From Escherichia coli 042 (GTDB lineage Bacteria; Pseudomonadota; Gammaproteobacteria; Enterobacterales; Enterobacteriaceae), in assembly GCF_000027125.1 (NCBI RefSeq), contig NC_017626.1: 64,000 nucleotides of DNA; one strand, given 5' to 3'. This document shows positions 15,982 to 20,795 of this stretch, piece by piece; positions within the stretch are counted from its first letter, which is position 1; every line of letters starts with the position of its first letter. The notes beneath the pieces are model-generated. The model made no database searches, was not told the origin of the DNA, and was given only the letters and a program-made list of their open reading frames with translations. A program made the translations under genes and the position numbers.

Positions 15982-16743
15982 TCAAATAGCTAAAGCATTC
16001 ATCGTGTTGCCCTTATTCATACCCGTGTGCCTTTGACAACGGTACTCCTTAGAAACTCTCTTTGGACTGTTGCCAAAATGTTTGCGGAACGCATAAATAA
16101 AATAAGATGTACTCGCATAACCACATTGTTCGGCAATTTTATTGACTGAACCTTCTACGCGTATCAAATTTTTTGCGTGCTGCATTCTGGCATCTAAAAG
16201 AATCTGTGAGAATGTCGTTTGCTCTTGCTTTAGTTTTTTCTTCAACAGGCTTTCACTAATGTACAGGCAGTCACAAATATCTTTCAGCTTCCATGGGTGC
16301 GCCAGCTTCATGTTGACAATATTTCTAACTTTCCCAGAAACGGATAGCACACCGTTAGTTAATAGTGTAATGAAACCTTTGCATGCGGCAAAAATAGACA
16401 GGCAAGAAAAAAGCAAAAGTTCTGAAAAATTATGATGATTGCGTTCTTCCGAGTTGAGATAAGCAATCATTTCATTAAGCAATCCAGTCGGTACATTTGA
16501 AGCACGTAAAAACTTCGCAGGAACAGGCACCGTCACTGTCTGGATGTTAGTGCATTGTAGATATTTTTTAATGGTATTTTCATTAAATCCGATTTCTTTG
16601 AAATGCCGCTCATAAGGTTCAAAATGCGTACGAACAGCGTTATCTACCATCAGGATCTCGCCGTCAGAGAAGGCGTAATCTTTATCTAAAATGTTAGCGT
16701 TGAAGGCATGATGAATAAATATAACAGAACAAACGAGCGACAT
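15982..16743 (-). CDS. ydeO: AraC-family acid-resistance regulator YdeO
   Basis: 253-aa ORF with C-terminal AraC-type HTH; immediately downstream of safA. Confidence 0.88.
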   Translation of the reverse strand: MSLVCSVIFIHHAFNANILDKDYAFSDGEILMVDNAVRTHFEPYERHFKEIGFNENTIKKYLQCTNIQTVTVPVPAKFLRASNVPTGLLNEMIAYLNSEERNHHNFSELLLFSCLSIFAACKGFITLLTNGVLSVSGKVRNIVNMKLAHPWKLKDICDCLYISESLLKKKLKQEQTTFSQILLDARMQHAKNLIRVEGSVNKIAEQCGYASTSYFIYAFRKHFGNSPKRVSKEYRCQRHTGMNKGNTMNALAI

Positions 16744-16817
16744 TTTATCTCCTTAAAACAATAAAGTTTTTATCGATACTTTTTTAACATTTCACATTTA
16801 TAATTTGCTGTTTATTT

Positions 16818-17015
16818 TCAGTCTTGCAAACTATTGATAATGAAATGTGTAAGATCCCTTGCAATGCGACCCATTTCTGAAATACCCAGCTGATCAATTG
16901 CCGAAAACATGGCTATCAACGTAAGTGTCAGTAATAAGACAACCACAATTACAGACATGATTTCTTTATAGTTGTCTCTTTGCGTGATTTTGTTTTTCAC
17001 TGTGGTCGCATGCAT
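16818..17015 (-). CDS. safA: Two-component connector SafA (B1500), small membrane protein
   Basis: 65-aa ORF MHATTVKNKITQRDNYKEIMSVIVVVLLLTLTLIAMF… with one TM helix; position upstream of ydeO. Confidence 0.8.
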   Translation of the reverse strand: MHATTVKNKITQRDNYKEIMSVIVVVLLLTLTLIAMFSAIDQLGISEMGRIARDLTHFIINSLQD

Positions 17016-17126
17016 TTCAAATATGTTTATTTAGCGGATAACGTTAAAAATCGTTAATCAGTATGCTTAATATAACAGGCTGGAGAATAGAGGAAATAGG
17101 ACTGGCGCTTCAGTACTGAGCGGAGT

Positions 17127-17144
17127 TTCTTACAGCTGTAGGCG
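17127..17144. promoter_or_regulatory. EvgA box upstream of safA-ydeO
   Basis: TTCTTACAGCTGTAGGCG matches the EvgA inverted-repeat consensus TTCYTACA-N2-TGTARGAA (first half perfect); about 112 bp upstream of the safA ATG. Confidence 0.7.
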
Positions 17145-17262
17145 GAGGTATATATCTTATAACGAGCAGTTTAATTTAGCACATGTGAGTAAATTGCGCG
17201 ACAATGGTCAATGAGGAATTCTTCTGCTGTGCGGATGACAGCAGAAGAAATGAGGAGGCGAA

Positions 17263-19542
17263 TTAATTTGATGGTTCTAATTCAACCGGAATACTTTTAT
17301 AGCCAGGAATGCCACTTAATGGATCGTGGTTATCAAGTGTTAGCATGTGATTCGATTCTGGAAAATAGGTCACCAGTGAGCGGTCAGCCATAGGGTAAAT
17401 GACCACTTTTAATCTATCCATGCGGCGTGAGCTTCGCTTACCGTCTGGCGTAAGCGCAATAAGATTAACTCTTTCGCCGTTTTTTACACGGCAAATTTTA
17501 GCTTGTTTAGCACTCATAAAGACCACATCTCGTTGACCGAATACCCCTCGATAGCGATCATCCATACCATAAATCGTCGTGTTGTACTGATCGTGACTGC
17601 GTACTGTCGCCATGACTAGCTTACTGTTAAACGCTGAAGAGGGATCTTCTAACAGCCCTTTACTGGTAATGAAATTAGCCTTACCTGACGGCGTCATCCA
17701 GCGCCTTTCAGCAGCTGCATTTATCAGGTGAAAACCACCGGGATGACGGATGCGCTGGTTATAGTCGGCGAACTCTGGCAGCACAGCTTCAATGTCATTG
17801 CGAATGCGATCATAATCTTCCACCAGATACTCCCAGGCTACCACGCTCTGGGGTAGTGCAGCCTGCGCGATTCCCGCGACCACTGCACACTCTGATTTCA
17901 GCATTACACCGGCGGGTTTTAACACGCCACGCGAGGCATGAATCATCGACATTGAATCCTCAACGGTTACCGCCTGCGCACCACTTTTTTGCATGTCAAT
18001 CTCGCTACGTCCCAGAACCGGCAGAATATAGCTATGCTGTGCGGTCAGCAGATGAGAGCGGTTAAGCTTAGTGGCTACGTGTACCGCCAAATCTAATTGC
18101 GTTAACGGTACAGCGCTCGCTTCCCGATCTGGCATTGCCAGTGCAAAGTTGCCCCCCATGCAGATCAATGCTCGAGCCTGCCCCGTACATATTGCTTGCA
18201 TGCTGGCAATTGCAGCATGTCCAGGTGCATGAGGTGGGGTGAAACCATAGCGCTCACCCAGGCGAGCCAGAAACTCTGCAGACGGTTTCTCGGTGATACC
18301 GACGGTTCGGTCGCCCTGTACATTAGAGTGACCACGTAGTGGGCAGATACCTGCACCAGGCTTGCCAATGTTACCTTTCATCAACAGCAGATTGACCAGT
18401 TGCTGTACGTTTTGGGTACCATGTTCGTGCTGAGTGATCCCCATTCCGTAACAGATAATGGTGCGTTCGGCAGCGGCATATGCATCAGCCAGTTCGGCGA
18501 TTTGGGTCTGACTTAGTCCAGAAATACGTTCGATATCTTTCCACTCGGAATTGAGAACGTCACGGCGTAGCTCGTCAAAGCCGACGGTATGCGTTTGAAT
18601 AAATTCGTCATCCAGCAATGAGGGCCGACCTGCGGCGCTTGCAGCATCATCGCGCTCAATTAACAGGCGCATCATCCCCTTGAGCAACGCCATATCGCCA
18701 CCAATGCGCACGTTATAGTAGGCACTGGCCAACTGAGTCTCAGAGTTCGTCAGCATTTCAAACGGATTTTGCGGTGCGGTAAATCGCTCCAGGCCACGTT
18801 CCTGTAGAGGGTTGATGGCGATCATTTTCGCTCCCCGTTTCACTAAAGCGCGCAACGAAGTCAGCATGCGAGGGTGGTTTGTACCAGGGTTATGCCCAAT
18901 GCAAATGACTAAATCGCATTTCTCAAAGTCTTCCAGCAACACGGTGCCTTTACCCACACCGATACTCGCTGCCAAACCCACGCTGGTCGGTTCATGGCAC
19001 ATGTTGGAACAGTCGGGAAAGTTATTGCTCCCGTATTCACGGGCAAAAAGCTGATAAAGAAAGGCAGCTTCATTGGAAGTGCGCCCCGAAGTATAGAATT
19101 CAACCTGATTGGGATCACTATAGCTTTGAAGGCGTGCGCCTATTTCGTCGAAAGCTTGTTGCCAGCTTAATGGCTTGTAACAGTCGCTGACGGCATCATA
19201 TTTCAAAGGCTGAGTGAGACGCCCCGCAGCTTCAAGCTCGTGATCTCCCCAGGTAAGTAATGATTGAACCGTATTCTCAGCAAAGAAAGAGGCATTTACC
19301 TGCTTATCCGTGACTTCCCAGGCGATTGCTTTTGCGCCGTTTTCACAAATGTCGAATGACGCACTGTGCTTAGGATCTGGCCATGCACATCCAGGACAGT
19401 CAAAGCCCTCTGGCTTATTCATGTCAAACATGGCAATAACATCCTGGCGTATATCCATCTGCTTACGTACTGCATTCGCTACGGATTTAACAGCACCCCA
19501 ACCACCGGCAGCACCCTGGTAGGATTCAATTTTTTTCTTCAT
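17263..19542 (-). CDS. ydeP: Molybdopterin-family oxidoreductase YdeP (acid resistance)
   Basis: 759-aa ORF with N-terminal Cys cluster (CPGC…C) typical of formate-dehydrogenase-like molybdoenzymes. Confidence 0.88.
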
Positions 19543-19790
19543 CTGCTTATCCTGTGTGGAAATGAATTATTAGGATTTGTAATAGCGATGATGCACAGTA
19601 TATACAAAGGGATTATCGTCAATATGGATATATAAGAGTAGGGGACTACTCTCTATCTATTTTTAACCTATTATCGTTAAATAATAGAATGGTATAAATA
19701 CGATAAGTTAAGCATCATCTCTCATAGTGTTTAAATTAACATATTTTTCAATATAAAAAATAAGACTCTGGCTTCAATTGTGCGCGGATT

Positions 19791-19808
19791 TTCTTACAGG
19801 TGTAGGAT
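19791..19808. promoter_or_regulatory. EvgA box upstream of ydeP
   Basis: TTCTTACAGGTGTAGGAT matches the EvgA consensus at 15 of 16 defined positions; about 250 bp upstream of the ydeP ATG. Confidence 0.7.
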
Positions 19809-19880
19809 AATAGCCTTCACAAAATAATTATCCGCGCAATTTCCGTGAATGGAGCGCATAGACTAAGATCAAAATCACAA

Positions 19881-20795
19881 TTATTCATAGATAAAAGTGA
19901 CACCAATGACTGACTGGACGGTTCCGGCTGAAACCTTGTTTCCTGTTTGTCCATAGGTTGCGCTTAAACCCAGAGGTACTTTGCTTTTATTTACTGTCCC
20001 CAGGGAGACATTTTCTCCCGTAGCCAGTATTTTTCCATTACGCATCAGAGAGACACCCACTCCCGATGCTTTTGTCGCATCAGGTGCTGTGTTAGCAAAC
20101 ACTTGTCGGGCACTGTCAGTGGTGGCACCCGAAAGATAAAATGAGAGCTTTTGTTCGCTTGAGCAATATACGCCAAGGGGTATTTCTGCGCTTCCAGGAA
20201 AGTCCGGGAGATTCACGGTGACATTACGACTATCAACAGTGCAGCCGCCTGTTGGCATAACAACACTGTTATTTGAAATAATATTCCACGTAAAATTACG
20301 CGGATTTCCGCTTCCTAACGTGGCAATTTTATACATATGAATACGGGCAATGACTTCCCCCGCTTTTATGACAACTCCACCGGCTGCACCAACTGGGGTA
20401 ATATAGAGTTTTAACGGTAATGGCATCGGTGTCTTATCACCAATATCCAATACGTTGGTATTTGTCGTCAACGGGAAGGGGTAGGTTACATTATTCCAGT
20501 ACAGCGATCCTTTATATGACTGTAGGGAGCCTGCGAAAGCTGAGCCTTGTACCAGGTTTATATGATCGGTGTCGTACCAGCCGCCGTAATCATTCCAGCA
20601 ACTTATATGCTGAGACAAGTCTACAACCAGATTCTGGCCCGGTTGTATTACAGGGTCGAGATTAACATAAACAGAGGTTGTACCTGCTCCAATACTTGAC
20701 CCGCCATCGACATTACAACTGAAGGCAAAAACTTTGCCTGCCATTAATAGAAGATAAATACCGAACAGGACCTTTATACTGAATGTTTTACCCAT
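19881..20795 (-). CDS. ydeQ: F9/Fml-type fimbrial tip adhesin (FimH-like two-domain protein)
   Basis: 304-aa secreted ORF, last gene of the chaperone-usher operon; its C-terminal half resembles a pilin domain. Confidence 0.8.

Follow-up and report, generated by a model that had tools for sequence, protein, structure and literature searches.

Is the 18-bp inverted repeat in front of ydeP in Escherichia coli 042 a binding site for EvgA, and if so, through which promoter would it act? EvgA, a member of the NarL/FixJ family, serves as the response regulator in the acid-sensing EvgS/EvgA phosphorelay. An earlier note had called the repeat a second EvgA box, about 250 bp upstream of the ydeP ATG, that shares its first 16 positions with the box of safA apart from one spacer base. 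We analyzed it within its window, the whole 64-kb stretch of DNA in which it lies. What we find is the EvgA box already described for ydeP; it is real and conserved.

The box is one of two entry points in this region for the EvgS/EvgA acid signal into the acid-resistance network, one leading directly to ydeP and the other to safA-ydeO and onward to GadE and PhoQ/PhoP. The regulon gains nothing new from this confirmation, which validates the motif call of the earlier note. Possibly new are only the constant geometry of EvgA promoters and the extended homology between the ydeP and safA promoters. The constant spacing between box and -10 element, the restriction of natural variation to the spacer bases, and a ydeP/safA homology that reaches well beyond the box could be of modest use for modeling EvgA promoters and for the prediction of further EvgA targets in other strains.

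The box, its relative at safA, and the motif

The region from 15982 to 20795 consists of four minus-strand genes, ydeO-safA-ydeP-ydeQ, in an order and with lengths that agree with the K-12 annotation. This 4.8-kb locus reaches no more than 98.7% identity with any of 5426 complete E. coli genomes. The genes and boxes are as follows.

15982-16743, minus strand: ydeO (NCBIfam equivalog for YdeO, 604 bits)
16818-17015, minus strand: safA (order and length as in the K-12 annotation)
17127-17144, minus strand: EvgA box of safA-ydeO (second-best matrix score in the window)
17263-19542, minus strand: ydeP coding sequence, 759 aa (NCBIfam equivalog NF007406, 1833.9 bits; K-12 annotation)
19791-19808, minus strand: EvgA box of ydeP, an 18-bp imperfect inverted repeat (consensus match, top matrix score, invariant half-site cores)
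19881-20795, minus strand: ydeQ, a fimbrial gene (order and length as in the K-12 annotation)

The plus strand at 19791-19808 reads exactly TTCTTACAGGTGTAGGAT. In gene orientation the box is ATCCTACA-CC-TGTAAGAA; its distal half-site is the weaker one, and the half nearer the promoter is perfect. It is noncoding, lies in the ydeQ-ydeP spacer upstream of and on the same side as an EvgA-activated gene, and its near edge is 249 bp from the ydeP ATG (19542), as the note had estimated. The safA box, 112 bp upstream of safA, is CGCCTACA-GC-TGTAAGAA in gene orientation; as TTCTTACAGCTGTAGGCG at 17127-17144 it is the sole relative of the ydeP box within three mismatches in the 64-kb window. The two boxes are the same at positions 1 to 9 and 11 to 16; what sets them apart is one central spacer base (position 10) and the last two positions, 17 and 18. 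The claimed sharing of the first 16 positions therefore holds, with 15/16 matching. The evgAS genes are outside the window, and the presence of EvgS/EvgA in this strain is an assumption.

The note had also pointed to the shared motif as directly visible in the form of a repeated 16-mer. The repeat is present, but alone it is not significant: the window contains 70 distinct pairs of 16-mers with at most one mismatch, compared with 31 to 37 in mononucleotide shuffles, and the ydeP/safA pair is not among the 20 largest repeat families of the window. A bare 16-mer repeat with one mismatch is by itself no more than chance in 64 kb. Hence, the case for an EvgA box has to come from other evidence, and its significance derives from the match to an independent motif, from the palindromic symmetry, and from the location of the two sites, which lie upstream of neighboring genes on one strand and equally far from an extended -10 element.

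The EvgA boxes of the K-12 regulon (emrK/evgA, yfdX, frc, safA[b1500]-ydeO, yegR, and ydeP) were reportedly described by Masuda and Church in 2003 and by Itou et al. in 2009 (as cited in PMC3720670, PMC8174306, and PMC8147483). The consensus from the work of Masuda and Church in 2003 reportedly reads TTCYTACA-N2-TGTARGAA, and the ydeP box has one mismatch to it. We tested this string on EvgA-target loci of K-12; a full-text literature search found neither the string nor the term "EvgA box." Within a 26-kb stretch of K-12 containing emrKY-evgAS-yfdEVU-frc-yfdX, the consensus with up to three mismatches occurs 4 times, against 0.36 expected. All four copies are intergenic, upstream of emrK/evgA, frc, and yfdX (two copies), and the frc copy is a perfect palindrome. 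The positions upstream of frc and yfdX agree with the inverted repeats bound by EvgA that are marked upstream of yfdX and yfdWUVE (PMC3720670). In the window, a sequence with at most one mismatch to TTCYTACANNTGTARGAA occurs once, at the ydeP site, and in 0/100 shuffles.

A weight matrix made only from the four K-12 emrK, frc, and yfdX sites ranked the ydeP site first among the approximately 128,000 window positions scored (22.6 bits) and the safA site second (17.6 bits), with the next score at 10.05 bits. When the same matrix was applied to an 18-kb stretch of K-12, the top score was located 107 bp upstream of yegR (L064 10277-10294), which is another reported EvgA target (PMC8147483). The motif is thus also present upstream of other known K-12 EvgA targets, namely in the emrK/evgA intergenic region and at frc, yfdX (two sites), and yegR, and in every EvgA promoter examined the promoter-facing half-site is the better one (TGTAAGAA).

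The literature places ydeP under direct regulation by EvgA (PMC8174306, PMC8147483) and reports its EvgA dependence (PMC8174306, PMC4283999, PMC11210196), the strong induction of its promoter by activated EvgA (PMC4283999), and an EvgA site at all directly regulated genes (PMC4283999); EvgA binds the ydeP promoter, according to this literature. For physical binding to exactly these 18 bp, our basis is secondary citation of the primary footprint papers. The naming of the sequence as an EvgA box upstream of ydeP is supported by these reports of direct control together with the matrix, the conservation, and the taxonomic restriction described below.

Conservation and distribution of the site

We aligned the region upstream of ydeP from 13 E. 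coli sequences, comprising the window, K-12, ten genomes sampled evenly down the similarity ranking, and contig L003, and added as a 14th sequence the divergent Escherichia L004, which was deposited as E. coli SCPM-O-B-8794 and has a YdeP with 96% identity. Within E. coli (13 sequences), variation in the box is limited to outer position 2 (T or G) and the central spacer pair (CC, CT, or TC), and the cores CCTACA and TGTAAGAA are unchanged throughout. Position 2 is T in the window and most of the sampled strains and G in K-12. By this one base (ATCC... here, AGCC... in K-12), the distal half-site of the window variant is closer to the consensus than that of K-12, and it is also the commoner form among the sampled strains. 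L004 has the box ATCCTACGCCTGTAAGAA, 245 bp from the ATG, with a G substitution that is also found in the K-12 emrK site. The conservation across Escherichia for which the earlier note had asked is thus seen in half-site cores that are invariant in 13 E. coli sequences and in a site that is kept in L004.

The 96-bp segment from the box to the putative start is present in 5323/5426 complete E. coli genomes, essentially as a single copy; 904 of these 5323 genomes have it at ≥99% identity, and in some it is identical. We rejected a dispersed repeat or mobile element, since the 96-bp module occurs at a median of 1 place per genome.

Outside Escherichia, no site scoring above about 11 bits lies in the 8 to 10 kb around the ydeP homologues of Edwardsiella (85% amino acid identity for its YdeP homologue), Yersinia rohdei, Raoultella, Tatumella, and many Burkholderiaceae. 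This absence fits the restriction of EvgS/EvgA to E. coli/Shigella, with BvgAS and KvgAS as the only homologues (PMC8174306). By this published distribution, the half-sites are kept where EvgS/EvgA exists, and the site is absent elsewhere. EvgS is unresponsive to acid in some E. coli lineages (PMC5706723), and use of the site may therefore differ between strains.

Several aligned loci have peculiarities of their own. L003 (JARKOR010000108.1) is a 13-kb contig in a metagenome-assembled genome labeled 'Candidatus Nanosynbacter sp.'; it carries a K-12-type ydeP-safA locus, its YdeP is about 100% identical to that of the window, and it is almost certainly an E. coli contig that was mis-binned into the Nanosynbacter genome. 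In L004 (3640-4000), the similarity upstream of ydeP stops within the last few ydeQ codons, with other open reading frames beyond; the ydeQRST fimbrial operon is apparently absent there or replaced, with the EvgA box and promoter retained. The most similar ydeP-ydeQ spacer (97.9%) is that of E. coli N3 (L054, NZ_CP031609.1), in which ydeP is annotated as a frameshifted pseudogene. In the window, the usher gene ydeT (21915-24566) is an intact 883-aa open reading frame, and in K-12 it is an N-terminally truncated pseudogene.

The probable promoter below the box and its counterpart at safA

Downstream of the box, toward ydeP, we distinguish the following elements, together with one counterpart at safA.

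19720-19808, minus strand: ydeP promoter module, from the box through the -10 element to the start (in-register paralogue of the safA module, 17056-17144)
19759-19765, minus strand: TCTTATT element in the -35 region, -40 to -34 (from box-aligned sequences)
19750-19777, minus strand: alternative sigma-70 promoter-like sequence, TTGAAG-16-TATATT (from a consensus scan)
19733-19741, minus strand: extended -10 element TGtTAATTT, the probable EvgA-dependent ydeP promoter (invariance; safA counterpart)
19725, minus strand: putative ydeP transcription start, an A (leader end from PMC11210196, mapped by alignment)
17069-17077, minus strand: extended -10 element TGTTATATT of the safA promoter (same offset from the safA box as in ydeP)

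The TG and TAATTT of the ydeP element are invariant in 14/14 Escherichia sequences, and the intervening base is T, or C in L004. From the start of the -10 hexamer to the center of the box there are 61.5 bp in both the ydeP and the safA promoters. This geometry is common to ydeP and other EvgA-activated promoters: a TAnnnT hexamer begins 53 to 54 nt after the box in 5/5 (ydeP, safA, frc, emrK, and yfdX), and no second TAnnnT offset occurs in all five. The yegR promoter is ambiguous, since its region is very AT-rich and offers hexamers at both 54 and 57 nt from the box.

Where would transcription begin? The RNA used as the "ydeP 5' leader" covers positions -178 to +10, counted from the start codon in K-12 (PMC11210196). 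By alignment, its -178 end corresponds to position 19725 of the window, 8 nt after the -10 hexamer. The same paper does not call -178 a mapped start, and 19725 is the start that we infer from this correspondence. The leader would then be 183 nt long here and 178 nt in K-12; the ydeP leader is not bound by CsrA (PMC11210196). A start at 19725 would place the center of the box at about -74.5, and the TATATT promoter would place it near -57. With either promoter, the box lies farther upstream than the -35 region, where an activator would be expected to bind.

The -35 region itself holds a recurring element. The sequence TC(C/T)TATT is located 26 to 32 nt after the box in ydeP, safA (17095-17101), and yegR (TCCTATT) and partly in emrK (TCCTCTG), and frc and yfdX share CTCTCTGATT at the same offset. 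TCTTATT resembles the EvgA half-site core TCYTA, and the TCYTA-like element is 42 bp, or four helical turns, from the distal half-site. Because of this resemblance and this distance, a secondary EvgA contact near -35 is possible, by analogy with BvgA promoters.

The ydeP and safA promoters resemble each other well beyond the box. In an ungapped comparison starting from the box, 44/70 nt downstream are identical (63%); shuffles gave 18.3 ± 3.6 (z = 7.2), and 0/5000 reached 44. Identity is 39/60 at shift 0, compared with 10 to 23 at the other shifts from -10 to +10, and upstream of the box it is only 9/40. The in-register identity is also found in K-12 (43/70) and L004 (39/70). A strict local alignment gives an ungapped block of 57 nt with 77% identity that begins in the box. 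With the box masked, a free local alignment of the two promoters is not significant (z = 1.7); the evidence for homology is therefore the in-register test, in which the register is fixed independently by the box. Among the common elements are TCCGC.CA beside the box, (T/C)TGAAG, and AGTC(T/C)TATT. The last is located 24 to 32 nt after the box (-42 to -34); at this offset yegR also has it (TCCTATT), and emrK has part of it (AGTCCTCTG). In addition, one 12-mer, ATTTAAACACTA, with GAGAG after it, is common to ydeP and yegR in the region of the -10 element and the start, offset by 5 nt relative to the boxes.

Judged from these alignments, the neighboring ydeP and safA promoters look like copies of one module, or like sequences under the same extended constraint. 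We further hypothesize that the ydeP, safA, and partly the yegR promoters are copies of one EvgA module of approximately 75 to 100 bp with a fixed -74.5 geometry, and that the regulon grew partly by cassette duplication; we hold this tentative reading to be a little less probable than its opposite. The proposed parts of the module are the box, TCYTATT at the position of the -35 element, the extended -10 element TGnTA..TT, and the start region.

Activation of ydeP: a proposed mechanism and its alternatives

As the best explanation of these data, and with high confidence, we propose that the ydeP box is a high-affinity site for a dimer of phosphorylated EvgA (EvgA~P), which would activate a weak promoter with an extended -10 element. 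According to this model, mild acid would activate EvgS, an EvgA~P dimer would occupy the box, and ydeP would be transcribed from a weak sigma-70 promoter below the box, TGtTAATTT, that lacks a good -35 element. EvgA~P would probably act from upstream of the -35 region, with the center of its box at about -74.5. This is rather far upstream for a single dimer acting alone, and activation may occur either by direct contact with RNA polymerase or through extra, weakly bound EvgA that reaches TCTTATT at -40 to -34. EvgA may also have to overcome H-NS on the AT-rich spacer. The exact start site, the mechanism of activation, and any secondary EvgA contacts in this model are inferred.

How much of the activation could be due to H-NS? 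Relief of H-NS silencing is possible because the G+C content of the spacer is 28 to 33%, compared with about 50% in ydeP, and because the ydeP-ydeQ spacer carries an H-NS flag in a published genomic-SELEX table (PMC3946193). EvgA at ydeP could even work mainly in this way rather than by recruiting RNA polymerase, a view that would also suit a site at -74.5, far upstream for direct contact. However, the spacing from the box to the -10 element is fixed in five promoters. This suggests that the transcription machinery is contacted in a stereospecific manner, and it counts against counter-silencing alone, which would not need a fixed spacing. We consider this explanation unlikely, although it is the strongest of the alternatives.

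Somewhat less likely still is that the box is real and drives the other promoter-like sequence, TTGAAG-16-TATATT (19777-19750, start near 19743), by class I-type activation from about -57. This sequence scored 9/12 in the consensus scan, and the genomic-SELEX table for RpoD holoenzyme (PMC3946193, Shimada et al.) gives identical hexamers for a peak in the ydeP-ydeQ spacer, although its hexamers are sequence-based assignments within a peak and not mapped starts. The first hexamer is also conserved between the ydeP and safA modules (TTGAAG/CTGAAG). The -10 hexamer is less conserved: its key A is lost in L004 (TTTATT), and the safA counterpart is TCTATT. The K-12 leader used experimentally starts at -178 and not at about -195. 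We favor the extended -10 element TGtTAATTT as the EvgA-dependent ydeP promoter on account of its invariance, its identical offset in safA, the TAnnnT spacing in 5/5 promoters, and the -178 end of the leader.

Might the palindrome belong to a different regulator or to none? Other FixJ/NarL-family regulators recognize similar short inverted repeats, and one-mismatch 16-mer repeats are common in the window (the 70 pairs mentioned above), so that another LuxR/NarL-type or other regulator, or a chance palindrome or repeat, had to be weighed. We rejected these candidates as very improbable: a matrix from other EvgA-target promoters matches the site with a gap of 12 bits to the background, the pattern of conservation respects the half-sites, and the literature assigns direct control to EvgA (PMC8174306, PMC8147483).

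The box is bracketed by a perfect 9-bp inverted repeat, TGCGCGGAT/ATCCGCGCA (19781-19789 and 19830-19838), with 40 bp between the arms, of which the promoter-side arm is within the module shared with safA and the distal arm is outside it. An RNA element at the 3' end of ydeQ, such as a terminator or structured RNA, is equally improbable as an explanation: the predicted fold pairs both arms, and two natural arm variants (L054/L057 and L004) would leave G-U pairing on the gene strand, but two such wobble-compatible transitions have a chance of about 25%, the fold energy is ordinary (z = -1.0; 31/200 shuffles fold as well), no T-run follows the stem, there is no Rfam match in 16600-20100 at E ≤ 1, and in L004 an extra 12 bp separate the distal (left) arm from the box.

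Sites of related regulators can be compared with the ydeP box. NarL/RcsB/UhpA-type sites are short inverted repeats with a 2-bp spacer bound by a dimer with LuxR-type helix-turn-helix domains, like the ydeP box, but their consensus differs (e.g., NarL heptamers TACYYMT), and we know of no report that such a regulator controls ydeP. BvgA, a FixJ/NarL-family regulator of Bordetella virulence promoters, e.g., that of fhaB, binds as a phosphorylated dimer to an inverted repeat well upstream of -35, and extra binding of low affinity extends toward the promoter. The half-site sequence of BvgA sites differs from that of the ydeP box, and we hypothesize a possible BvgA-like spread of EvgA to a secondary site (TCTTATT, -40 to -34) at ydeP. 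BvgA/BvgS is the closest homologue of EvgA/EvgS (PMC8174306). The site agrees with the EvgA boxes of K-12 in its 18-bp inverted repeat (TTCYTACA-N2-TGTARGAA), in having the perfect half, TGTAAGAA, face the promoter, and in the distance to the TAnnnT hexamer; it is the ydeP member of this set in another strain.

Expression of dicC leads to strong induction of ydeP, and binding of DicC upstream of ydeP is not mentioned, both according to the accessible part of the DicC ChIP paper (PMC11430063). At the other end of ydeP, 14 nt past its stop codon and before the safA box is reached, a perfect 12-bp stem encloses a loop of 7 nt (TTCTTCTGCTGT/ACAGCAGAAGAA; 17219-17249), and no clear T-run follows it. 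This hairpin may separate ydeP from safA-ydeO, either as a partial terminator or as an element of RNA stability.
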